Positions 36,268-46,800 of a stretch of 64,000 nucleotides of DNA are shown in pieces. Location of the stretch: the NCBI GenBank assembly GCA_030145345.1, contig JAQYVT010000004.1, positions 992 through 64,991 of the forward strand, in the 5' to 3' direction. Position 1 is the stretch's first letter; every line of letters begins with the position of its first letter. The notes beneath the pieces were generated by a model. The model saw only the letters and a program-made list of their open reading frames with translations, did not search any database and was not told the origin of the DNA. This DNA is from Desulfobacterales bacterium (lineage in GTDB: Bacteria > Desulfobacterota > Desulfobacteria > Desulfobacterales > UBA11574). Both the position numbers and the translations under genes were made by a program.

Positions 36268-38082
36268 TTAAGGCTGTTCCCACGTAACCCTCAGCACCTC
36301 CTGATAGGTGGTCTTGCCGGCGAGCAGTTTTTTCAAAGCATTGCCTCGCAGCGAAACCATCCCCTCTGCCTTGGCCTGATTGCGAATGGTTTCTATATCC
36401 ATACTGGCGTTTGTCATTTTTTTCAACGACTCCGAATACGGAACCACTTCGAAAATACCGGTTCTCCCGTAATAACCGGTGCCCCGGCATTTCTGACACC
36501 CCCTGCCCCGATAAAGCGTTATCCGTCCGTTTTTTTCAACATCCAGCCCCATGGTCCTCAGTTCCGCCGTTTCCATATCAAAGGGTTCCATGCAGTGGTT
36601 GCAAATCTTTCGAACCAGGCGCTGAGCCATTATGCCCACCAGGGTACTCTGGATCAGAAACGGAGGGACCCCGAGATCAAGGAGTCGTGTGATCGACGAA
36701 GGCGCGTCGTTGGTATGGAGGGTCGACAAAACCAGATGACCGGTCAATGCCGCCTGAACCGCATTTTCAGCGGTCTCGAGATCTCTCATCTCCCCGATCA
36801 TGATGATGTCCGGGTCCTGCCGTAATATATTTCTCAGGATCGTCGCAAACGCAATTCCGATTGCCGGTTGAACCGCAATCTGGTTAAACTCCTCGCACAC
36901 CATCTCGATGGGGTCTTCTATGGTTGTAATATTAATCTCAGGCGAATAGATATCTTTGAGCGTTGAATAAAGGGTGGTCGATTTGCCGCTCCCCGTGGGA
37001 CCGCAGACCAACACGATTCCATGGGGCATATTGATAAATTTATTGTAGCGAATCAAATCCGTAGATGTAAAACCGAGCTTTTCCAGATCCTGAAAAAGGA
37101 CATCCGGATCCATGATCCGCATGACCAACTTCTCTCCAAAGGCTACCGGTATGGTCGAAACCCGCATCTCCACCTCAACACCGCCTTTATCGGTTTTAAT
37201 TCTTCCATCCTGGGGCCTTCTCTTTTCTGCCATGTCCAGCCTGGACAGGTTCTTTATCCTGCTGACAATGGCGGAATGAACATTCTTGGGAAGTTGATGC
37301 ACGGTATGCAGAACGCCGTCAATACGCATCCTAACCAGGCTTACATCCCGTTTGGGCTCGATATGAACGTCACTGGCCCGCTGATCAAAAGCGTATGTGA
37401 AAAGGTAGTTCACGGCATTCACCACATGCTGATCGGTGGACGGAAGTTCGTCTGCGGATTTCAACCGCACATACTGCTCGAGATTCCCCAGATCAACCGA
37501 AGGACCTGCAAACTGGTGTTCTGCTGCAGCAATAGAGCGTTTAAAGCCAAAGAATTCATTGATCAGCTTAACGATGTCGGATTTTGAGGTGACAACCACC
37601 TTGACTTTAAGCTGACTGGCCCGGGCAATATCTTCCATAACCTCCACGTTAAAAGGATTGGGGGTTGCAACGGTGAGGTGCCCGTCCTTTATGGCAATGG
37701 GGAGTACCAGATGTTTCATGGCAAAGCTTCGCGGAATCGTAGTGGTCACCAGATTGAGATCCAGCTTTAAGGGATCGATTTTCTTGAACGGGATTTTCCA
37801 TTCGTCTGCAAGGGTTTGGAATATGAGTTCCTCATCCACCACTCTGGAATCAGCACCCGAACATTCCAAATTCAAAGCGGCAATGATATCGATGCTGGTG
37901 ACGGGATTTACAGACCTTCTCCCTGAAGCCGAGTTACGGTTCTTTTGCTTTTTTAGCCTGGCCTCCAGCACATCCTTTTTTTTAAGGATTTGCTCTGCCT
38001 GGCCGGATGTAATGAGCCCTTTTTTTAAAAGCGTCCGGCAAACATTTTTTGCGGACAATCGGCTCTGCATGTCATTTTTCAT
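36268..38082 (-). CDS. GspE/PilB-family type II secretion / type IV pilus assembly ATPase
   Basis: 604 aa with Walker A GPTGSGKST, an Asp box and His box, and a C-terminal tetracysteine (CNHC...CQKCRGTG). Last gene of the pilus module. Confidence 0.9.
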   Translation of the reverse strand: MKNDMQSRLSAKNVCRTLLKKGLITSGQAEQILKKKDVLEARLKKQKNRNSASGRRSVNPVTSIDIIAALNLECSGADSRVVDEELIFQTLADEWKIPFKKIDPLKLDLNLVTTTIPRSFAMKHLVLPIAIKDGHLTVATPNPFNVEVMEDIARASQLKVKVVVTSKSDIVKLINEFFGFKRSIAAAEHQFAGPSVDLGNLEQYVRLKSADELPSTDQHVVNAVNYLFTYAFDQRASDVHIEPKRDVSLVRMRIDGVLHTVHQLPKNVHSAIVSRIKNLSRLDMAEKRRPQDGRIKTDKGGVEVEMRVSTIPVAFGEKLVMRIMDPDVLFQDLEKLGFTSTDLIRYNKFINMPHGIVLVCGPTGSGKSTTLYSTLKDIYSPEINITTIEDPIEMVCEEFNQIAVQPAIGIAFATILRNILRQDPDIIMIGEMRDLETAENAVQAALTGHLVLSTLHTNDAPSSITRLLDLGVPPFLIQSTLVGIMAQRLVRKICNHCMEPFDMETAELRTMGLDVEKNGRITLYRGRGCQKCRGTGYYGRTGIFEVVPYSESLKKMTNASMDIETIRNQAKAEGMVSLRGNALKKLLAGKTTYQEVLRVTWEQP

Positions 38083-38108
38083 AGTTCAACACTTCCGTTA
38101 AGAAATTA

Positions 38109-38969
38109 TTACTTCCCGGGAGATGGTTTGGTTCTCCCCAATTCTTTATCGATCAACACCTGGAATTCTTTGGGCGACCAATTCCTCAAAAGTCGTCCGC
38201 CAATAAAAACAGTGGGCGTCCCCCTGATGCCGGCCTGGTTTCCATCGAGAATATCCTGTCGTATTTGGCCCAGAATTCCGGAATCTTTCATCTGTTTTTC
38301 AAATTTTTCCATATCAAACCCCAGATCTCGGGCAATATCTTTTATCTTTTGATCACTGAGCTGTTTATAATTTTCAAAAAGTCGGTCATGGAACGCCCAG
38401 AATTTTCTCTGTCCGTCGGCTGCAAGCGCTGCTATAGCGGCCTGTGTCGCATATTTATGTCTTCTGAGGGGAAAGTTCTTAAAAACAATTTTTACGTTTC
38501 CCGGATTATTCTCGAGCACCTGCTCGAGGAGAGGCACGATCCTCGCGCAGTACGGTCACTGAAAATCGCTGAACACAGCGATCACCACCGGCGCGTCTAC
38601 CGGTCCCTTAAAAGGCGATCCGGAGATGTTGATTTTGTGGATAAAATCGATGGCAAGAACCTCAACCGTTTTGTTCTTGCGGCTGCTGAGTAGAAGCAGG
38701 TTATCTTTAGGGCCGACCCTGATTTGATCCACATGACTTCCAACGCTCATTTTATCTTCTAATTTTCCTTTTGACGAATAGATCAGAATGTTTCCTGAGT
38801 CGTTGAGAACGAAAATCCATTTCCCGTCCGTGGACACCGCAACATCCACAGGGGGGGTATCCATTTTCAATTTCTGCTGGACATCCCATTCAACACGGGC
38901 AAAACTTTCTGCAGAAAAAACCACTATCGTCAAGACCGCCGCCAGGAAAATCAAAATTTTTTGTTTCAT
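38109..38969 (-). CDS. Predicted selenoprotein: secreted DsbA-like thioredoxin-fold oxidoreductase with in-frame TGA (Sec) at 38558-38556
   Basis: Track ORFs 38556-38969 and 38109-38537 are in the same frame. Reading through gives ...VVIAVFSDFQ-TGA-PYCARIVPLLEQVLENNPGNVKIVFKNFPL..., so the TGA sits at the first Cys of the CPYC motif of a DsbA-type domain. Only the upstream part has a signal peptide. The downstream part has no ATG or SD of its own. Confidence 0.75.
38511..38545 (-). promoter_or_regulatory. Candidate bacterial SECIS hairpin(s) downstream of the UGA
   Basis: mRNA: UGA CCG UAC UGC GCG AGG AUC GUG CCU CUC CUC GAG CAG GUG CUC GAG. Hairpin a is GAGG-AUCGUG-CCUC, with its loop 16-21 nt after the UGA. 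Hairpin b is CUCGAG-CAGGUG-CUCGAG, with its loop 34-39 nt after the UGA. Both loops contain GU. Confidence 0.4.
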
Positions 38970-38992
38970 GTTAAAACCCTTCGTTAAAACGG

Positions 38993-41900
38993 TTAATCTT
39001 TCTCCATCCAGCTGGTACTGCCGGTCTTTACACTTTTCAGCGGCAGATTGGGCTGAGGAATCTCAACAATGGTACCGGTACTGGTTTGAACGAAAGCTTT
39101 GCTTCCTTCCTCTTTCCCCACATGGAGATCCGGCGTTGTGGCCAGACCACGCCCCAGATCCATGCGGGCCTCAACATTGCCGTTCCCGTCGAGTGCATTG
39201 TCACCAAATACGCTCTCATACCATGCGGTTCCGGTTCGAAAATAAACCCCGTGAAGATAAGAAAACCCCTCGGCCAGGCAGACATCATCATAGGGCTGAT
39301 AGGTTGTGAATGTAAGTAATCCGCCCAAAAGAGCGCCCTGCCCCAGATTCCGTTCTCTATCGTCGGCAAATTCCTTGTACCATCCGTCGGTTCCGGTGGA
39401 GTAGCTCCGGCCTACCGGCGCCGTCCCGTCATCACAGCCGGTTCCGGCAATGTAACTCTCCAGTGCCGAAAACGTGGTAATTCCGGTGGGGAGACAGTTG
39501 GTTGTCAGGTCGACACATGAAAGGGCGGCATTCGCAGCAGTGGTTGCTTCTTGGACCAGAATATCACCGACCTGCAGCAATCCCTGGGATCCGGGGGTGG
39601 TGTTGAAGGTTCCGGTCTTTTCTACGGTTTCCCAGGTGAATCCGTCACAGTTTCGCGGCTCTTTGATGCCGAAATAAGCCTCCTGAGCATTGCTGCTGGA
39701 ATCGGTTTTATCGTCTGAATCTAAAAATCGTCCGGTGCCGAAATAGATCCAGTAATTCGTGCCGTCGGTTCCGATGGACGCTGCACCGGTCACCGGCCGG
39801 CCCGCATCGATCAGGTAAAGGGGATTGCTCAGCGGACTTATCAGCGTGGACCAGTCGCTGGGACTGGTCACCAGCTGACTTCGAGGGGTACCACTGTCCA
39901 TTTCTCGGGTGACCATCCGGTATAGGCCGCCCCCCCAGCTGCCCCAGGTGCCAGAGACCGTCCCGAAATATACGGCATCTGTCTTGTAATTACTTTCAAG
40001 CTCAACGTCCACGGATATCAGATCCGATACAAAGCTGTTGGCGGTCAGCGTAAAAGTGCCGCCTTGGTCATTGGCCACCGTCGGTATTGCGTCGGGAATT
40101 CGGAGCGCCTTGGGGGTTCCCACCAACCAGCTTAAAGGCAGGACCGCAAGTTTGGCGTCCTGGGTGCTCGTACCGTCCACATTCGTCGGTCCGCTGCCAA
40201 GAATCAGATACCAGCTTGTGTCGCTAACGTCAGCACCGTTTTTCATGCTCACCATTGTCGGTGAAGCTGTTGTATATCCAAGATCCACTTCGGTACCGCC
40301 GGTTGTCAGGGTTATCTCGCCCAGCAGTGTCGGCGGGCCTTCGGGATCGGTAATGTCGAGAATAACATACGCAGAGGTGAACTCTCGTGTGTCGGCCGGA
40401 TAATCCGCAGAACCGTTATCATCCAGATCCAGTGTGCCCGGAAGGATCTTGGCACCGCCGAACCGCATCCCCTGAACCATAATCGTCCCCCAGCCGCCGG
40501 TATGAACGCCGTCGGTGGGATCGAAAATCCGCACGTCAAAGACTCTCGGGTGCAAATCCACGAAATATTTGTGCTCATATGAAGGATCTGTCAAACATTT
40601 TAGATGCGGCAACAGATTATAGGGAACATACGCCCACAACTCAGCACCCAGCTCCGGTCCCGCTGTTTCTGACTGGCAATCGGCGGTCAGGCAGAATTTT
40701 TTTTGGGTTTCATTATAAAACCCGCCGTTGACGGCATGGATCATGCCGTCGTTGGCCCCAAAGTAGATCACATTCCGGCGGTTCTTATAGGTGTTCACAA
40801 ATTGTGCATAAGAAGTGTCCCGGTATAGAAAATGAAAGCCTTCACTGGGTCGGGTCACTGAAATGGGCGTCGAGTGGACCACATCCCCGAGCCGCCAGGT
40901 AACATCCGCCGGGTTGCCGTCCAGATCGAAGTCGAAGGGCATCTCCCGGCTGCGCTGCCCGGCCTGATCATAGCCCCGCACCCATTTTACGATCTCGTTC
41001 ACCTCGGCAGTGGTCTGCAAACCAAAATCGAGGGGCACCGGGCCCCGGGAAGCGTCGACGGTCAGTGCGGCCCAGTCGTTGGTGGTGTCAAAATCGAGAA
41101 TTTCACTGCTGTCGACAATACCGTCATTGTCGAGATCATTCCAGGTGAAAACATAGCGTTTTTTTACATTGGAAATGAATCCGGTGGTGGTTCCCACCGA
41201 AATTCTGTTGACAAGGATGTTCGTATTCGCATCAGATGCCGTGGGGGAAATATCTGCAAGCCATTCTGATGCAGACCACATGTAATGAATATCTTCCAGT
41301 CCTTTGGATGTTCCGTTGCAGGTGCCGTCCGTATTCAACTCGCCGTTGCAGGCTTTGGTCGTGCCCGCGGATTCGTCGTAATAAATCACCACCGTCGCAT
41401 CGGCGGCATCCAGGGTCCTGTCGCCGTTGGTGTCTTCATACAGGTTCGCGTATTCGTCCACGAACAGGGCATGCACCTCTCCGATCCAGTCGACAGAACC
41501 GCCACCGGACAGTTCCACCGTAGGCCAGAAAATGGCCTGATAGACCGCCCCTTCACCCCCCCGGGACGCAGATATGACCGAAGCGGCGGAGCCGGCTGCA
41601 GCGCCTGCCCGGATCGACTCAAAGGCGTTTCGGAGGGCGGTTTCCAGCTGGGCGGGGTCTGATGCACTGTAAAGCGTGGTACCCCCGTTGGTGGCAGCCT
41701 CTGCCAAGAGGACGTCGGGACTGCATTCATCGGCCCCGGTGGACCGCAAGGTTCCTGCAACCACGATGTGGGTGTTAACGTTCTGTTTGTCCTCTCCGTT
41801 GAGCTGTGTGGGATAAAGACTGCTGCTGTTCTGGGCATAATAGGTCAAGTCATCCAGATACGAGCTGCCGGAAAGCGAACCGCAGTCCACACTGTCTTCA

Positions 41901-44035
41901 CTGTCCAGATCATTCTGTCCCTCGGCCGCGACAAAGGCGCCGACGGTACCATTCAAATCTGCTGTGGACGCCCCTTCGGTGATGATAAGGATATTGTTCT
42001 TCTGGCAATAGGCGGTAATGGGATCATAACCGGAGCCGATGTTAAAATCATTGCTGTCCAGACGGAGCGCACTGTTCTGGCTGTAGTATCCCAAGGCATT
42101 ATAAAAGGCCTCGGCCAGGGGAGTCCAGGATGTGGCCTTGATATCGTTGACGGCATCCACCAGATTTGTGGTATGGGAACTCGACTTGTCGATATCCGAG
42201 ATGACCTGGCCCCCGTCCCGGTTCGACGGGTCCGAACAGTTATACAGGATAAAAGGATCCGGCTGACTGCACTCGCTGTTGGAGCCTTCGAAGTTAAACG
42301 CCATGGCCCCCATCCGGATGTCGTCGGAAAACTCCTGGATGAGCCCGCTGGGTGCGGACGATTTCGAAATATACCCCTGAACCACCCCAAGGGGCTCACC
42401 GATCTGGGCAACGACCCCCGAATCGATGAGCACCGCCGGGATATTCCAGAACTCACCGGTTTCGCCGGCCTGATCACTGGGGTCCACGACTTCGGGAATT
42501 TCCATATTGCCGCAATAGTCTTGCATGGCCGTTTCGATACAGGTATCCACATCCGCATATCCGGCAGCATCCCAGCCGGGTAAAGTACCCCCCACATATT
42601 CCCATTTCTTGCAATCACCGGTTTTGGGTCCGGAAGTAAAGTAACCGCCGGTGCAGGTCAGTACTGCGCCCGCCCCCGGATTCCAGCAGCGGCCCACATA
42701 GCCGAGTTGATTGGCCGGAACAGCGGCATAGAGTCCATAGCATATATAACCACGATCGTCGGATTCGATGTTCCACGGTTCTATGTTTGAGTATATGTCC
42801 TCACAGACATTCTTCGTGGAACTAACCACTCCCACCCCCGGTGGCCAGTCACCGTTTTTTGTCTTATACCAGCAGTTGTGAATGGCATGGTTAAAGGCTG
42901 CATGGGAGTTAGCCTCGGGACTACTTCCTCCGCCCTCCGAATACCCCATGCAGTCGTCGATATACACCTTCAACTGGCCCTGGTTGGGGCTGTCCTTGCC
43001 CAGCTCGGTTACGGCATTTTGGCAGGCGCTGTTATCAAACCCGTTTGTGGTTACAGGAAATATTTCAATATGGGTGAGATTGTAGGGAACCCAGTCTGTT
43101 ATGCCGGTATCATTGTCAACGCCGGTTCCGCCGGCCGTGCCGCCGACGGCGGTGATGTACAGCCGGCCTTCATCGATGGTATTGGCTTTGCCGGGATCCA
43201 CGACAATACTGCCGGCCGGATACGTGGCGCCGCTGGTCCACCGTGTGAGGGTGTAAGGTGTCCAGGACACCCCGGTATCATCGCTGGTGCTGCTTCCGGA
43301 CGAAGTGCCGGCAGAGGTTGCGATATACAGCTCTCCTGCGTCGTTGACCACATCCCCCACCGCATAGGCGGTTGCATCTTCCCACGGATCGAATTGTTGC
43401 TCCCGGGGCGGCCGTACGGCCAGGGTCAAATACTTTGTTCCCCCGTTTATATTGTCGGTAACCTGTACCTGCTTGGTATAGCGCCGGTCGAGGCAGCCCC
43501 TCGATTCCATGACGAGTCTGTTGTTGGTGCTGTCATATTTGCCGCCGGTGAGGATCTCTTTTTGAACGTCAAATTTCGAGGCCATGACCCAGTTGAAGAA
43601 GTTCCCGAATGCCACAAATGCCGTGGGGCTGGGGGTGGAATCGAGCAGTATCCAGACATACCCGTTGTAGTACCAACCGCCGGTACTGTCCTTTCCGGTC
43701 CAGTGAGCCGCAATGGAATAGACTTCGAAATAGTCGCCTGAAAAATTGTATGCATACAGAGTATTCCGATCGAAATATCCGGCATAGGTGCTACTGTGAT
43801 TGTAAGTGTCGTCAAAACACTGGCTGCCGTCTTCGACATACGCCATATCGATCATGCTCCCGGAGTTGTCGATCAAAAGGAGAAGATTCGGGTCCACGCC
43901 GCCGGCCAGAAACGGCGGCAGTGCCACACCGCTGCCGCAATAGTCAACAGCGTACAAATTCGGCGGTGCCGATCCGCTGAACAACAGCAAAATAATAAAC
44001 ACCATCAATGGGATATGTCTCTTGAAGCGTGTCAT
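38993..44035 (-). CDS. pilY1: Giant PilY1/PilC-like type IV pilus tip adhesin with N-terminal vWA (MIDAS) domain
   Basis: ATG 44035 (AGGAG upstream) gives a signal peptide MTRFKRHIPLMVFIILLLFSGSAPPNLYA. Also has LLLLIDNSGSM (DxSxS), later vWA elements (IRMGAMAFN, SWTPLAEAF, ILIITEGAS), a PilY1 C-terminal-domain start (WRLGDVVHSTP), and several DxDxDG-type loops. Confidence 0.8.
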   Translation of the reverse strand: MTRFKRHIPLMVFIILLLFSGSAPPNLYAVDYCGSGVALPPFLAGGVDPNLLLLIDNSGSMIDMAYVEDGSQCFDDTYNHSSTYAGYFDRNTLYAYNFSGDYFEVYSIAAHWTGKDSTGGWYYNGYVWILLDSTPSPTAFVAFGNFFNWVMASKFDVQKEILTGGKYDSTNNRLVMESRGCLDRRYTKQVQVTDNINGGTKYLTLAVRPPREQQFDPWEDATAYAVGDVVNDAGELYIATSAGTSSGSSTSDDTGVSWTPYTLTRWTSGATYPAGSIVVDPGKANTIDEGRLYITAVGGTAGGTGVDNDTGITDWVPYNLTHIEIFPVTTNGFDNSACQNAVTELGKDSPNQGQLKVYIDDCMGYSEGGGSSPEANSHAAFNHAIHNCWYKTKNGDWPPGVGVVSSTKNVCEDIYSNIEPWNIESDDRGYICYGLYAAVPANQLGYVGRCWNPGAGAVLTCTGGYFTSGPKTGDCKKWEYVGGTLPGWDAAGYADVDTCIETAMQDYCGNMEIPEVVDPSDQAGETGEFWNIPAVLIDSGVVAQIGEPLGVVQGYISKSSAPSGLIQEFSDDIRMGAMAFNFEGSNSECSQPDPFILYNCSDPSNRDGGQVISDIDKSSSHTTNLVDAVNDIKATSWTPLAEAFYNALGYYSQNSALRLDSNDFNIGSGYDPITAYCQKNNILIITEGASTADLNGTVGAFVAAEGQNDLDSEDSVDCGSLSGSSYLDDLTYYAQNSSSLYPTQLNGEDKQNVNTHIVVAGTLRSTGADECSPDVLLAEAATNGGTTLYSASDPAQLETALRNAFESIRAGAAAGSAASVISASRGGEGAVYQAIFWPTVELSGGGSVDWIGEVHALFVDEYANLYEDTNGDRTLDAADATVVIYYDESAGTTKACNGELNTDGTCNGTSKGLEDIHYMWSASEWLADISPTASDANTNILVNRISVGTTTGFISNVKKRYVFTWNDLDNDGIVDSSEILDFDTTNDWAALTVDASRGPVPLDFGLQTTAEVNEIVKWVRGYDQAGQRSREMPFDFDLDGNPADVTWRLGDVVHSTPISVTRPSEGFHFLYRDTSYAQFVNTYKNRRNVIYFGANDGMIHAVNGGFYNETQKKFCLTADCQSETAGPELGAELWAYVPYNLLPHLKCLTDPSYEHKYFVDLHPRVFDVRIFDPTDGVHTGGWGTIMVQGMRFGGAKILPGTLDLDDNGSADYPADTREFTSAYVILDITDPEGPPTLLGEITLTTGGTEVDLGYTTASPTMVSMKNGADVSDTSWYLILGSGPTNVDGTSTQDAKLAVLPLSWLVGTPKALRIPDAIPTVANDQGGTFTLTANSFVSDLISVDVELESNYKTDAVYFGTVSGTWGSWGGGLYRMVTREMDSGTPRSQLVTSPSDWSTLISPLSNPLYLIDAGRPVTGAASIGTDGTNYWIYFGTGRFLDSDDKTDSSSNAQEAYFGIKEPRNCDGFTWETVEKTGTFNTTPGSQGLLQVGDILVQEATTAANAALSCVDLTTNCLPTGITTFSALESYIAGTGCDDGTAPVGRSYSTGTDGWYKEFADDRERNLGQGALLGGLLTFTTYQPYDDVCLAEGFSYLHGVYFRTGTAWYESVFGDNALDGNGNVEARMDLGRGLATTPDLHVGKEEGSKAFVQTSTGTIVEIPQPNLPLKSVKTGSTSWMEKD

Positions 44036-44192
44036 ACCATGATCTCCTATATCGAGAATATCGAGAACTCCATTCCCCTCTTTCACCCGGCTATTTCTTA
44101 ATTACAACATGCCGTGGTTCCATGAAAGTGCAATAGATCCTTGCTCTACTTTAGACGCTATAATTTCAACCGCTTGTATCAGCTTTGCCCGG

Positions 44193-44807
44193 TCAGTAAT
44201 TACAAGCCCCTTCCTGGCCGACCAAATGTCTCCATTGACTCATAATCTCTGCCTGACTGTTGCTGGTTCCCAGGTGCTGCGAATAGACTCTATAAACGAT
44301 ATAAGCTCCGCCGGCACCGGCGCCTTTGCCCTTGCCCTCGTATCCGGCGGACATTTGAATGGCACTTCCGGTGGACAGCTGGGTGGCGCCGTAGATGCTT
44401 AAATTGGTGTGGGGACCTGTGTCTGTAGTGTATACTCTGATATCCCTTTCCGAATTAGAGGGATAGTCGCTGGTGGGTTCAGACTCCTGGAGCCAGAAAT
44501 CCTTGGTGTACACCCGGACATCGGTGCCGATATCCAGATATCCGACCCCTTCGTTAAAGGTGGAAAAACCGCCGGGGCAGGCAATATTCTGCTCCAGCAT
44601 TTCGAACCCCACCTCGGTTCCACCATCGGCTTCATAGAGCGCCTGTTTATGACGATCATCGTTTCCGGCAATCTGAACTTCGATGCTGGACGTCATGGTC
44701 GCGGAAATCCCCAAAAGGGTCAAAAGCGCCAGCATGATCAACGCAAGCACCGTAATGGAGCCGTTTTCAGGGTTTAAAATTCTTTTTTCTTTCAAAAATT
44801 TGTTCAT
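44193..44807 (-). CDS. pilX: PilX-like minor pilin / pilus assembly protein
   Basis: The N-terminus NGSITVLALIMLALLTLLGISATMTSSIEVQIAGN resembles a PilX_N domain. Its position between pilV and pilY1 fits. Confidence 0.65.
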   Translation of the reverse strand: MNKFLKEKRILNPENGSITVLALIMLALLTLLGISATMTSSIEVQIAGNDDRHKQALYEADGGTEVGFEMLEQNIACPGGFSTFNEGVGYLDIGTDVRVYTKDFWLQESEPTSDYPSNSERDIRVYTTDTGPHTNLSIYGATQLSTGSAIQMSAGYEGKGKGAGAGGAYIVYRVYSQHLGTSNSQAEIMSQWRHLVGQEGACNY

Positions 44808-44904
44808 AAATCGTTCCAGCTCAGCCGGTTAAAAAATTGTCACGTTACGTCTCAATGCGTAAAGGCACCGCCTGGATATCCAGATTTTTCAAGAAGATAC
44901 AGGG

Positions 44905-45294
44905 TTACCAGTCCGATTTCATACAGGTCAGTCGGGATGTTTTCCCCTTCCCGGTCACCGTTACGACGATTCGTTTTGTATTGGGAACCGGGGTGTTGTC
45001 GGCAATATCCCACCTTACGGCATACCCGTCTGAAGTCGTTTGCTCATGGGTATTTCCGGCCGAATCCACGCCAGAGGGGTTCCCGGCGGCTTCAAGCCAG
45101 GGATCGGAAAACGGCAGTGCCTTCAGTTCTTCCATCTTGTCCTGGGCCCAGTTCATCCGGGTGGTCATTTGACCCGCAGCTGAATTCACCTGAATGGCAG
45201 AGGTCTGCATGGCGGCAACACCCAGCAGACCCACGGCCAGAATAGAAATGGCGATTACCACTTCGATGATTGTAAAACCGGCATCGTTTTGCAT
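44905..45294 (-). CDS. pilV: Type IV minor pilin PilV-like
   Basis: Prepilin signature MQNDAG/FTIIEVVIAISILAVGLLG with Glu at position +5. ATG 45294 chosen. Confidence 0.75.
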   Translation of the reverse strand: MQNDAGFTIIEVVIAISILAVGLLGVAAMQTSAIQVNSAAGQMTTRMNWAQDKMEELKALPFSDPWLEAAGNPSGVDSAGNTHEQTTSDGYAVRWDIADNTPVPNTKRIVVTVTGKGKTSRLTCMKSDW

Positions 45295-45354
45295 TGCTCT
45301 GTTTTCAGTTCCCCGATTTTTATGATCTGCTGAACCTAATCTCATCCGATCATC

Positions 45355-46020
45355 CTATATACCCAAATTGCGGCATTTGATAAATGTTGTCATAGACTTG
45401 CGGCTGAAATTGTCATTTTGCGCACCCAGAATCTGGGTCCCTTGCTGGTTATAATACAGGTTGTTATCCTTGGTAACTCTCAACGCCCTGCTGGTTCGGG
45501 CCACGATGGTTATCTCCACGGATCTGATATCCGTCAGCGTTGCCGTTGTATTTCCGTCCGCGTCCAGATAGGCAAAATCGAGGGCATCGATATTTTCAGC
45601 CACCACCTGATTCCCGCCGCCGGTATCCCTGACAAGATTATTTTCGGACAGGGCATAGGCGATGCCTTCATTGGGATCATTGGTCGCCCCATCCGGGTCA
45701 CTGCCGTCCGCATCACCCCGGACATCCTCTGTAAAACTGATAGAATTGGCGTTTGCCGTAAGAATTCCGGCCCCGGCATTACCGGTGGGATCGCACCCTG
45801 CCATCCGGATTTCCTTGGTCATGTAAAACATTGCGGTCCTGATATTCTGCTGCATGGCGGCAACTTCCTCCTGCATCAAATACGATTTATGCTGGGACTG
45901 AAACGTCGAATAGATTCCCCCAAGAACCAGCAAAAATATGGTCATGCTAACCATTAGCTCGATGAGGGTAAGGCCCTGATTTGAAACTTTTGGGTATCTC
46001 AGTGTCTGTTTTAGCGTCAT
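45355..46020 (-). CDS. pilW: Type IV minor pilin PilW-like
   Basis: Prepilin signature ...SNQG/LTLIELMVSMTIFLLVLGG. ATG 46020 overlaps the fimT stop (ATGA). Confidence 0.75.
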   Translation of the reverse strand: MTLKQTLRYPKVSNQGLTLIELMVSMTIFLLVLGGIYSTFQSQHKSYLMQEEVAAMQQNIRTAMFYMTKEIRMAGCDPTGNAGAGILTANANSISFTEDVRGDADGSDPDGATNDPNEGIAYALSENNLVRDTGGGNQVVAENIDALDFAYLDADGNTTATLTDIRSVEITIVARTSRALRVTKDNNLYYNQQGTQILGAQNDNFSRKSMTTFIKCRNLGI

Positions 46021-46484
46021 TCCCATGAACTCCCACCGACCCATTTCTGCAATTTAATCACCCCGGAGGTCAGCGGACCGACCCTGAAATATACCGTGTT
46101 ATTCGAATTTGACAGGTAGGCATACCCCGCATTGCTCGTCCCCCGGGAATTAAACGTTATCGTTGTGACGGCAAAGGTTTCATCGTCCGGACCGTTAAAA
46201 TTTACACCACTGCCGTAATCCTCCAGAACAACGGTTTTGCTTAAAGCACCGCTTAAAACATACTGGTCCGGATCGGTGCTATAGGTAACCGTGCAATTTA
46301 CATTGGACTTAACCGCCGTCATTTTTGCCAGCTGCATGTTGGAATAAAGATCCCTGGCCGCACTTTTCAAGCGATATTTTGGAATCCAGCTCATAAAATT
46401 GGGGACGCCTATCGCAACGAATATAGATAAAACAGCGAGCACCACCACAAGTTCGACCACGGTAAATCCCGATTTTTTTTTCAT
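46017..46484 (-). CDS. fimT: GspH/FimT-like minor pilin
   Basis: MKKKSG/FTVVELVVVLAVLSIFVAIGVPNF prepilin signature. The ORF extension up to 46547 would cover the promoter. Confidence 0.75.
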   Translation of the reverse strand: MKKKSGFTVVELVVVLAVLSIFVAIGVPNFMSWIPKYRLKSAARDLYSNMQLAKMTAVKSNVNCTVTYSTDPDQYVLSGALSKTVVLEDYGSGVNFNGPDDETFAVTTITFNSRGTSNAGYAYLSNSNNTVYFRVGPLTSGVIKLQKWVGGSSWE

Positions 46485-46518
46485 GACTCCCATCCTAATA
46501 AGCCCCCGATGTTTTTTA

Positions 46519-46534
46519 TACAAATTTCGTGCCA
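46519..46534 (-). promoter_or_regulatory. Candidate sigma-54 promoter of the minor-pilin operon
   Basis: The minus strand reads TGGCACGAAATTTGTA. The -24 element is perfect (TGGCACG), the spacing is correct, and the -12 element is TTGT instead of TTGC. It lies 34 nt upstream of the fimT ATG. Confidence 0.45.
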
Positions 46535-46693
46535 AGGGGGTTGCCATTATTAAGGGACTTTAAAAAATGAACTCGATCAAACTACATTATGATTATATCG
46601 ATTTGATATAATTAGCAATAACCGAGAGGAACTTTGAGGGCTTTAGAATTGATAACTTCGGATTTGAAGTGAAGCAATGCATTAAAGGCTATT

Positions 46694-46764: not shown

Positions 46765-46800
46765 AAAAACCGAATTGTCTGATTGCGACAATCCTTTTTT
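46765..46800 (-). terminator. Probable terminator downstream of purQ (potentially bidirectional)
   Basis: Minus-strand GGAUUGUC-GCAAUCA-GACAAUUC (8 bp including one G-U pair) followed by GGUUUUU. The plus-strand version is followed by TTTTTT. Confidence 0.5.

Follow-up and report, generated by a model that had tools for sequence, protein, structure and literature searches.

A stretch of 64,000 nucleotides from a Desulfobacterales bacterium of the sulfate-reducer type (GenBank assembly GCA_030145345.1, contig JAQYVT010000004.1, positions 992 to 64,991; the whole stretch is called the window below) carries on its minus strand a compact set of type IV pilus genes, in which a gene for a DsbA-like thiol-disulfide oxidoreductase is embedded (Table 1). 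The enzyme is a genuine selenoprotein; the codon for the first residue of its active-site motif is TGA, and this TGA is a genuine selenocysteine (Sec, U) codon. Comparison with relatives shows that one clade has inherited and maintained the association with type IV pilus genes, which lends moderate support to a functional tie. A preliminary description of the window had proposed a private oxidative-folding factor for the pilus tip complex. The reading preferred here, to which slightly more belief than doubt is attached, is broader: a co-expressed general periplasmic thiol-disulfide selenoenzyme, acting as oxidase or isomerase, which counts the tip proteins among its major clients.

Selenocysteine decoding and architecture of the enzyme

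Gene callers split the dsbA-like gene into two open reading frames (ORFs) at the TGA. When this codon is read as U, a protein of 286 amino acids with the motif FSDFQ-U-P-Y-C is obtained, and both halves of the gene are strongly conserved. There are more than 600 homologues of the same length, and those sampled have C-P-Y-C in the columns of U-P-Y-C. The catalytic codon is TGA in 22 distinct homologue loci and TGC or TGT in 19.

The codon is followed by a hairpin of the selenocysteine insertion sequence (SECIS) type. An Rfam scan of the region at E<=10 gave no SECIS family or other credible RNA; hence, the hairpin was tested by comparing TGA homologues with Cys homologues. This comparison is the sole informative test of the hairpin; folding a single sequence, the 64 nt that follow the UGA, gave nothing significant against shuffled sequences (z = -1.0). 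All 22 TGA homologues have the hairpin, with 6-7 of the 7 pairs (mean 6.7/7) and a mean free energy (dG) of -10.8 kcal/mol, whereas the same region in the 19 Cys homologues forms on average 3.2/7 pairs (mean dG -4.1 kcal/mol) despite a similar encoded peptide. RNAalifold retains the hairpin, and double-sided (compensatory) changes are seen at three pairs. The genome also encodes a tRNA-Sec (C39:3093-3190) and SelB (384 bits against a cut-off of 242 bits). In the preliminary description, the protein was called possibly Sec-dependent; the TGA-specific hairpin with its covariation, the tRNA-Sec and SelB confirm this.

A signal peptide (residues 1-24; N-terminus MKQKILIFLAAVLTIVVFSAESFA, without a lipobox Cys, as read from the sequence) opens the protein. 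Behind it come a beta domain of two blades (about 38-108) and, at 119-275, the DsbA/Thioredoxin_4 domain, in which U138-P-Y-C141 forms the active site. The AlphaFold2 (AF2) model is confident, with a predicted local distance difference test score (pLDDT) of 91.6 and of about 90 for the N-terminal beta domain. This domain is modelled as seven to eight beta strands (residues 40-106) arranged as two four-stranded blades and preceded by the signal peptide helix, and over the N-terminal part, the family profile has a weak match to 1l0q, a YVTN beta-propeller S-layer protein. According to Pfam, AF2 and Foldseek, the protein has the thioredoxin fold with an inserted helical domain that marks the DsbA family. 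Structures matched by the catalytic domain in Foldseek were the Silicibacter oxidoreductase 3gyk, BdbD of Bacillus subtilis, ScsC proteins, Wolbachia alpha-DsbA2, the DsbA of Corynebacterium diphtheriae and TsdA, with Salmonella BcfH as a lower-listed match; TM-scores normalised to the target were 0.76-0.84 against 3gyk, BdbD and alpha-DsbA2. Several of these structural neighbours are multimeric enzymes with isomerase or mixed activity, and the two-blade beta domain may serve to oligomerise the enzyme, by analogy with ScsC/BcfH/DsbC-type enzymes.

The pilus operon

The span 46547-36268 of the minus strand holds seven tightly packed genes in the order fimT, pilW, pilV, pilX, pilY1, dsbA-like gene and ATPase gene. 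This layout had been given in the preliminary description, and its coordinates and families were reproduced from the ORFs, Pfam and NCBIfam, with family support for every one of the genes. The operon is flanked by purL-purQ upstream and a convergent ychF downstream. Gene starts are inferred; if pilW starts at 46020, its ATG and the fimT stop form an ATGA overlap. The spacers measure 9 nt between pilW and pilV and 97 nt between pilV and pilX; pilX is separated from pilY1 by 106 nt if pilY1 begins at its GTG and by 157 nt if it begins at the ATG at 44035, which is the more plausible start. The dsbA-like gene lies 23 nt from pilY1 (38970-38992) and 26 nt from the ATPase gene (38083-38108), both spacers contain a GAAGG-type ribosome-binding site, and a double TAA stop closes the gene. 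No terminator-like hairpin was found in any junction of the operon, and a promoter and terminator scan gave sites no more numerous than in shuffled sequence and was uninformative on internal promoters. The dsbA-like gene very probably shares a transcript with pilY1 and the ATPase gene.

Prepilin features were recognised through PF07963 in three of the minor pilins and through PF14341 in the fourth. Orthologues of PilW that are 65-91% identical occur in four genomes of relatives (G002, G005, G051 and G044). For the ATPase, the best NCBIfam model is TfpB (NF053534) with 677 bits, under its equivalog cut-off of 850 bits, while PilB and GspE score 529 and 536 bits, respectively.

PilY1 has a vWA-like DxSxS motif in its N-terminal part, further a Cys-rich region and three loops of the DxDxDG type, and at its C-terminus a beta-propeller. 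The very Cys-rich insert that had been noted earlier is indeed present, as 13 of the 28 Cys in total lie between residues 355 and 617. Across five orthologues with identities down to 48%, 26 of the Cys are invariant, and these orthologues include the ones of two genera (g10 and g2; genera of the family are denoted by g, that of the window genome being g1) which have no adjacent DsbA gene. The 26 invariant Cys could, from their number, form about 13 disulfides. The cysteines are clearly structural, so that PilY1 may plausibly draw heavily on a disulfide catalyst.

Two further properties of PilY1 were observed. Its N-terminal insert contains a weak match to CBM_5_12, a chitin/carbohydrate-binding domain, at residues 235-264 (about 43300-43385 in the window), which recurs at the same place (residues 228-257) in the 66%-identical PilY1 of G008; with E of about 0.002-0.003, the match is below the Pfam cut-off. 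The G+C content of the pilY1 body (window 40001-44000) is 55% as against 45-50% in the flanks, which could reflect either a composition rich in Gly, Asp and Thr or the foreign origin of a cassette.

Linkage and phylogeny in relatives

Outside the family, 26 full-length homologue loci were inspected and a pilus gene was adjacent only at L001, a contig identical to that of G024 in genus g5. Likewise, tblastn of the pilus proteins of the window against 80 homologue loci gave one neighbour match only, the ATPase of L001. This sole match at first suggested that the linkage was not conserved; sampling within the family led to the conclusion that it is clade-specific. The sampling comprised 52 genomes, which are assemblies of the metagenome-assembled genome (MAG) type and in many cases fragmented, and adjacency calls depend on contig ends. 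Homologues in Desulfobulbales sit upstream of phoH and ybeY/pdxJ, and other unlinked homologues adjoin genes for heme synthesis, a phosphotransferase system (PTS) or ATP-binding cassette (ABC) transporters. At 38 homologue loci without linkage, no pilin motif and no match to pilus proteins were found.

Within genus g1, the arrangement of the window is shared by G002, G005 and G001; in G003 and G004, DsbA-ATPase stands at the contig end, and in G006 a different PilY1 type is followed by a DUF4124-like gene and then by DsbA-ATPase-YchF. In g5 (G017, G021, G024 and G041) and g7 (G012), the order is (minor pilins-PilY1-)DUF4124-like-DsbA-ATPase. The genome of g3 (G008) has PilX-PilY1 (66% identical)-DsbA-DUF4124-like-267-aa protein-pilin, and in g8 an MshEN/PilT-like ATPase gene and a DUF4124-like gene on the opposite strand precede DsbA.

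In a maximum-likelihood tree of 53 homologues, the pilus-linked copies of g1, g3, g5 and g8 formed one clade (support 96/92), of which all members have Sec; the copy of g7 was placed in this clade by partial sequence only. The sister of the linked clade is formed by unlinked copies of G007 and G021. The copies of g10 make up a long-branched clade of their own, and the second copies of the g8 genomes fall into a third clade with the motif FDDYQ-U-PYC. Two genomes (G021 and G022) have the pilus-linked copy plus an extra unlinked paralogue. The simplest history suggested by these sequences would be that the gene moved once, in an ancestor belonging to the family, to a site beside the pilus ATPase gene, that it stayed there through several rearrangements and swaps of the tip cassette, and that it was lost from the site in g10.

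Redox and pilus genes elsewhere in the genome

The window genome (G000) is assembled in 188 contigs and is 97.8% complete. The dsbA-like gene of the window is its only strong Thioredoxin_4 match and encodes its only periplasmic DsbA-type enzyme. Two weak Thioredoxin_4 matches were considered as further periplasmic DsbA proteins and rejected: the one on C144 is a signal-less DSBA/FrnE-like protein of 251 amino acids, and the ORF on C118 is a fragment. With only one such gene, the enzyme is not private in the sense of an extra paralogue. A CcdA/DsbD_TM protein is encoded on C161.

The other pilus genes are dispersed, with pilMNOPQ on C22, pilT/pilU on C161 and pilC, followed by a sensor kinase gene, on C85; a separate type II secretion system (T2SS) is found on C100/C24. 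T2SSF matches occur only on C85 and C100, secretins only on C24 and C22, and the pilin motifs on the window contig are only those of three minor pilins; the earlier statement that no pilA, pilC or pilMNOPQ lies in the window thus stands. Besides the GspE of the T2SS and a 794-aa TPR-ATPase, the ATPase of the window is the only PilB-type candidate in the genome. A prepilin-motif scan of the genome in all six frames gave no major type IV pilin (pilA); apart from the three minor pilins of the window, it matched only GspG on C100 and three T2SS pseudopilins on C24. A gap in the assembly may hide the pilA gene, or its leader may be unusual.

Interpretation

The operon would represent a single transcription unit for the priming and tip module of a type IVa pilus, made up of four minor pilins, a giant PilY1 and an extension ATPase, with an exported DsbA-family oxidoreductase, predicted to use Sec as its nucleophile in place of Cys (U-P-Y-C), encoded between PilY1 and the ATPase. 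The enzyme would be expressed together with PilY1, PilW and PilX and would catalyse the formation and/or reshuffling of their disulfides on entry into the periplasm. Sec would allow thiols and disulfides to exchange fast under anoxic, sulfidic conditions. The enzyme would not be exclusive to the pilus; because it is the only periplasmic DsbA-type enzyme in the genus, it probably serves other envelope proteins too. The direction of catalysis could be that of an oxidase or of an isomerase/reductase, DsbB and VKOR being absent and CcdA present.

Several observations weigh against a functional tie of this kind. DsbB (PF02600) and VKOR (PF07884) gave no match in the genome, in which positive controls were detected, and the oxidase role is uncertain since neither is present. 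In two genomes of the sister genus g10 (G051 and G044), the order purL-purQ-fimT-pilW-pilV-pilX-pilY1-ATPase is found without a DsbA gene between pilY1 and the ATPase gene, although PilY1 is 79% identical with 26-27 Cys and the ATPase 84% identical; the spacer between the two genes is 131-280 nt. Elsewhere in g10, the ATPase gene is directly preceded by the other PilY1 type (G049) or by a DUF4124-like gene (G023). At that position, g2, g9 and g11 lack a DsbA gene; there is either a DUF4124-like gene or no gene at all. The genomes of g10, g2, g9 and g11 do have DsbA-like selenoproteins elsewhere, that of g10 being on another contig and in another clade. Moreover, the Cys-richness of PilY1 does not track adjacency: the PilY1 type of g5 has 5-8 Cys only and yet a DsbA gene beside it, while g10 has a high-Cys PilY1 without one. 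Two homologues near the linked clade (L005 and L013) have no pilus genes in the available flank; L005 stands in the basal polytomy of that clade, and L013, too short for the tree, was judged by 64% identity and its U-K-Y-C motif.

A deletion of 64 nt with a frameshift was also met in the dsbA-like gene of the congener MAG G001 (L128, C465, about 1547; equivalent to window 38511-38574). It removes exactly FSDFQ-U-PYC and the SECIS hairpin, while pilY1 (90% identical) and the ATPase gene (94%) are intact, which likewise counts against a tie to the pilus. The deletion could be a real inactivation of the gene or an artefact of assembly, the MAG having 7% contamination.

In the preliminary description, a comparison of synteny had been proposed to see whether the dsbA-like gene always follows pilY1, and a gene order not conserved in relatives had been named as a ground for giving up the link. 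The linkage holds in g1, g3, g5 and g8 (and, by partial sequence, in g7), while g10, g2, g9 and g11 have no DsbA gene at the site; hence, the proposed link loses part of its ground.

The first alternative to be weighed, which is possible but rather unlikely, is that a housekeeping oxidoreductase landed beside the pilus ATPase gene by accident in the ancestor of a few genera and has no special tie to the pilus. Such an enzyme would fit with the presence of just one periplasmic DsbA-type gene in the genome and its congeners, with the unrelated housekeeping contexts of homologues outside the clade (phoH-ybeY/pdxJ in Desulfobulbales; heme and PTS genes), with an operon in g10 that runs without a DsbA gene and with a Cys content of PilY1 uncorrelated with adjacency. 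However, the linkage has survived at least three local arrangements in four to five genera and has stayed where the neighbouring tip cassette was swapped, genomes with two paralogues keep the copy of the linked clade at the pilus locus, and spacers of 23 and 26 nt make co-expression hard to avoid. If the linkage were only historical, what remains would be an annotation correction (one selenoprotein gene, not two ORFs) and an example of operon variation.

Another possibility, regarded as unlikely, is that of a reductase/isomerase or stress enzyme of the ScsC/DsbC type, which would be kept reduced via CcdA and would repair or prevent wrong disulfides or persulfides in a sulfidic periplasm, with pilus proteins among many clients. 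Such an enzyme would be suited by general selenoprotein chemistry, in which reduction and exchange usually come more easily to a selenenylsulfide than to a disulfide, and by the lack of DsbB and VKOR together with the presence of a CcdA/DsbD_TM protein. The closest structures include multimeric enzymes with isomerase or reductase activity, namely ScsC, alpha-DsbA2 and BcfH (PMC8405906), and the model leaves room for oligomerisation through the extra N-terminal domain. This domain is beta-rich, however, unlike the helical trimerisation stalks of ScsC and BcfH, and BdbD, a true oxidase serving a competence pseudopilin, is structurally just as close. A general stress role also leaves the pilus linkage unexplained.

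A stronger form of the tie to the pilus, offered here as a tentative and doubtful extension, is that the Sec-containing DsbA-like clade co-evolved with the tip/motor module of strictly anaerobic Desulfobacterales-type bacteria and installs the approximately 13 disulfides of PilY1 without DsbB or VKOR, its partial-propeller domain serving to oligomerise the enzyme or to dock it on the pilus machine. If this were true, it would amount to a selenium-enabled route of disulfide formation without DsbB. The selenoenzyme and the adhesin with 26 invariant Cys provide a concrete pair for the question of how strict anaerobes without DsbB or VKOR make or maintain the disulfides of exported proteins, in the presence of sulfide. 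According to a 2026 review, almost none of the many predicted selenoproteins with a thioredoxin fold has a known biological role (PMC13188914), and a conserved pilus linkage would be one of few functional leads for them that come from gene context.

The proposal of the preliminary description, that the enzyme is private to the PilY1/minor-pilin tip complex and serves strictly for its oxidative folding, must be considered improbable. The inherited pilus linkage, the Sec-containing DsbA family and the 26 invariant Cys of PilY1 lend it partial support; the gene directly follows that of a 28-Cys PilY1, the pilus-linked clade is monophyletic with extra paralogues elsewhere in G021 and G022, and co-encoded specific oxidases have precedents in SrgA/PefA, DsbL/ASST and BcfH (PMC8405906). 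The privacy itself does not hold, as the genome encodes no second periplasmic enzyme of DsbA type for the remainder of the envelope; moreover, orthologous Cys-rich PilY1 proteins occur in g10 and g2 without an adjacent copy, and in g5 the gene accompanies a PilY1 of another type with few Cys. In its strong form, the idea is thus unsupported because the enzyme is the sole periplasmic one of DsbA type, the operon occurs without the gene in a sister genus and an oxidising partner is lacking. Finally, that the TGA is a true stop in a split or decaying gene from which no functional oxidoreductase is made is hardly credible, for all that gene callers give two ORFs and one congener MAG (G001) has lost the active site, since TGA at the exact catalytic codon and the hairpin are kept with compensatory changes in 22 homologues across several families, both gene halves are strongly conserved, and tRNA-Sec and SelB are present.

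Features of the window and further observations

The coordinates of the operon and its elements are collected in Table 1, together with examples of the DUF4124-like gene from relatives.

Table 1 Features of the window and DUF4124-like genes at loci of relatives
Feature	Position	Strand	Evidence and remarks
Terminator-like hairpin after purQ, between purQ and fimT	46772..46794	-	likely upstream boundary of transcription unit
FimT/GspH-like minor pilin, 176 aa, likely true start M19 or M22	46017..46547	-	PF12019 GspH 6e-08; PF07963 N_methyl 1e-06; GFTVVEL prepilin motif
PilW-like minor pilin, 2 Cys	45355..46044 (or start 46020)	-	N_methyl 1e-07; weak PF16074 PilW match, 22.4 bits, below 26-bit cut-off
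PilV-like minor pilin	44905..45345	-	N_methyl 1.6e-07; TIGR02523 PilV 46.6 bits, just under 52.2-bit cut-off
PilX-like minor pilin, 2 Cys (residues 77, 202)	44193..44807	-	PF14341 PilX_N 4e-09
PilY1 tip adhesin, 1697 aa from GTG; probable start ATG 44035	38993..44086	-	PF05567 at residues 1066-1474, 43 bits against 28.1-bit cut-off
Periplasmic two-domain DsbA-family selenoprotein, 286 aa	38109..38969	-	PF13462 (Thioredoxin_4) 7.5e-29; PF01323 (DSBA) 5.9e-24; TGA read through
UGA selenocysteine codon	38556..38558	-	in frame between two half-ORFs
SECIS-type hairpin CUCGAGC-AGGU-GCUCGAG (7 bp, 18 nt)	38511..38528	-	begins 30 nt after UGA
PilB-family extension ATPase, closest to TfpB, 604 aa, MshEN domain and C-terminal tetracysteine motif	36268..38082	-	PF00437 9e-124; PF05157 MshEN 4e-20
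DUF4124-like gene (examples)	L112:1079-1648, L117:2960-3490, L133:6534-7256, L134:6902-7579, L120:3893-4663		

The tip module was found to be polymorphic at a fixed locus, in that g1 and g10 each hold genomes with the PilY1 type of the window (79-91% identical) or with a second, unrelated type. The window type is found in g10 at loci L132 (G051) and L138 (G044). The second type is 79% identical between G006 (L112) and G049 (L131), and the flanking ATPase and ychF genes are still orthologous. This polymorphism looks like old variation or exchange of an adhesin cassette.

Most genera of the family have, between pilY1 and the ATPase gene, a gene for a secreted coiled-coil protein that is free of Cys and starts with a DUF4124-like part (AEYYKYxDxxGxxHYTD); at this site, it is more widespread than the DsbA gene. 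A hidden copy in the window genome was considered and rejected, as tblastn found none.

In Desulfocapsaceae, a single ORF of 398 aa (L015:11837-13033 and L017:11912-13108) apparently fuses YbeY (HGxLHLxGYDH) with PdxJ, as judged by eye. The DsbA-like gene and phoH lie upstream of it, and in L008 YbeY and PdxJ have an ORF each.

Comparison with known systems

Two elements of the arrangement are already known, namely a surface-fibre operon with its own DsbA-like enzyme (SrgA, BcfH) and the UxxC selenoprotein family. The combination of a type IV pilus minor-pilin/PilY1/ATPase operon with an active-site Sec, an N-terminal two-blade beta domain and the absence of DsbB and VKOR was not found described, and a literature search on PilY1, DsbA and minor pilins gave no paper reporting such an operon.

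DsbA-like UxxC selenoproteins (PF01323) have been catalogued since 2005-2006 and appear as "form 1", with no function assigned, in a 2026 review (PMC1794560; PMC13188914). The enzyme of the window shares with form 1 the thioredoxin fold of the DsbA family, Sec in place of the first Cys of CxxC, the existence of Cys homologues and the occurrence in anaerobic lineages of the Deltaproteobacteria type. The catalogues give neither function nor gene context, whereas the window enzyme adds the N-terminal two-blade beta domain and a subclade linked to pilus genes; pili are not mentioned in the 2026 review, its DsbA passages included (PMC13188914).

DsbA-like paralogues that are co-encoded with their substrates are known from Salmonella, with BcfH in the bcf operon and SrgA in the pef operon, and from uropathogenic Escherichia coli (UPEC), with DsbL/ASST (PMC8405906). 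BcfH combines oxidase with isomerase activity and has an extra N-terminal part for oligomerisation (PMC8405906). As in the window, a DsbA-like enzyme is encoded within or beside the operon of a surface-fibre substrate; the clients, however, are chaperone-usher fimbriae or a sulfotransferase, the enzymes have Cys and not Sec, and they are only about 17-25% identical to the window enzyme. They also coexist with a primary DsbA/DsbB, whereas the window genome and its congeners have one periplasmic DsbA-type gene and no DsbB was found in the window genome. Coexistence with a second DsbA-type gene is seen in G021 and G022 of sister genera.

Type IV filament subunits are among the best known clients of another group of DsbA enzymes. 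BdbD(/BdbC) of B. subtilis, TcpG of Vibrio cholerae and DsbA1-3 of Neisseria are needed for the disulfides of type IV pilins or pseudopilins, and BdbD is one of the two best matches of the window enzyme in both structure and sequence. Unlike the window enzyme, they are encoded away from minor-pilin/PilY1 genes, are served by a membrane reoxidant (BdbC or DsbB) and have no Sec.

With respect to the pilus genes, the operon resembles fimU-pilVWXY1E of Pseudomonas aeruginosa, in which a GspH-like pilin and PilW/PilV/PilX likewise precede a PilY1 whose N-terminus is vWA-like and whose C-terminal part is a beta-propeller. The operon of the window differs in that PilW precedes PilV, pilE is missing, and the oxidoreductase and the extension ATPase are appended; moreover, the PilY1 of the window is much larger (1697 aa) and has 28 Cys. 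In Acinetobacter baylyi, TfpB is a second extension motor of the type IV pilus, a PilB-family ATPase distinct from the canonical PilB (PMC8213720). The ATPase of the window has TfpB as its best NCBIfam match, though below the equivalog cut-off, and is apparently the sole pilus extension ATPase of its genome.

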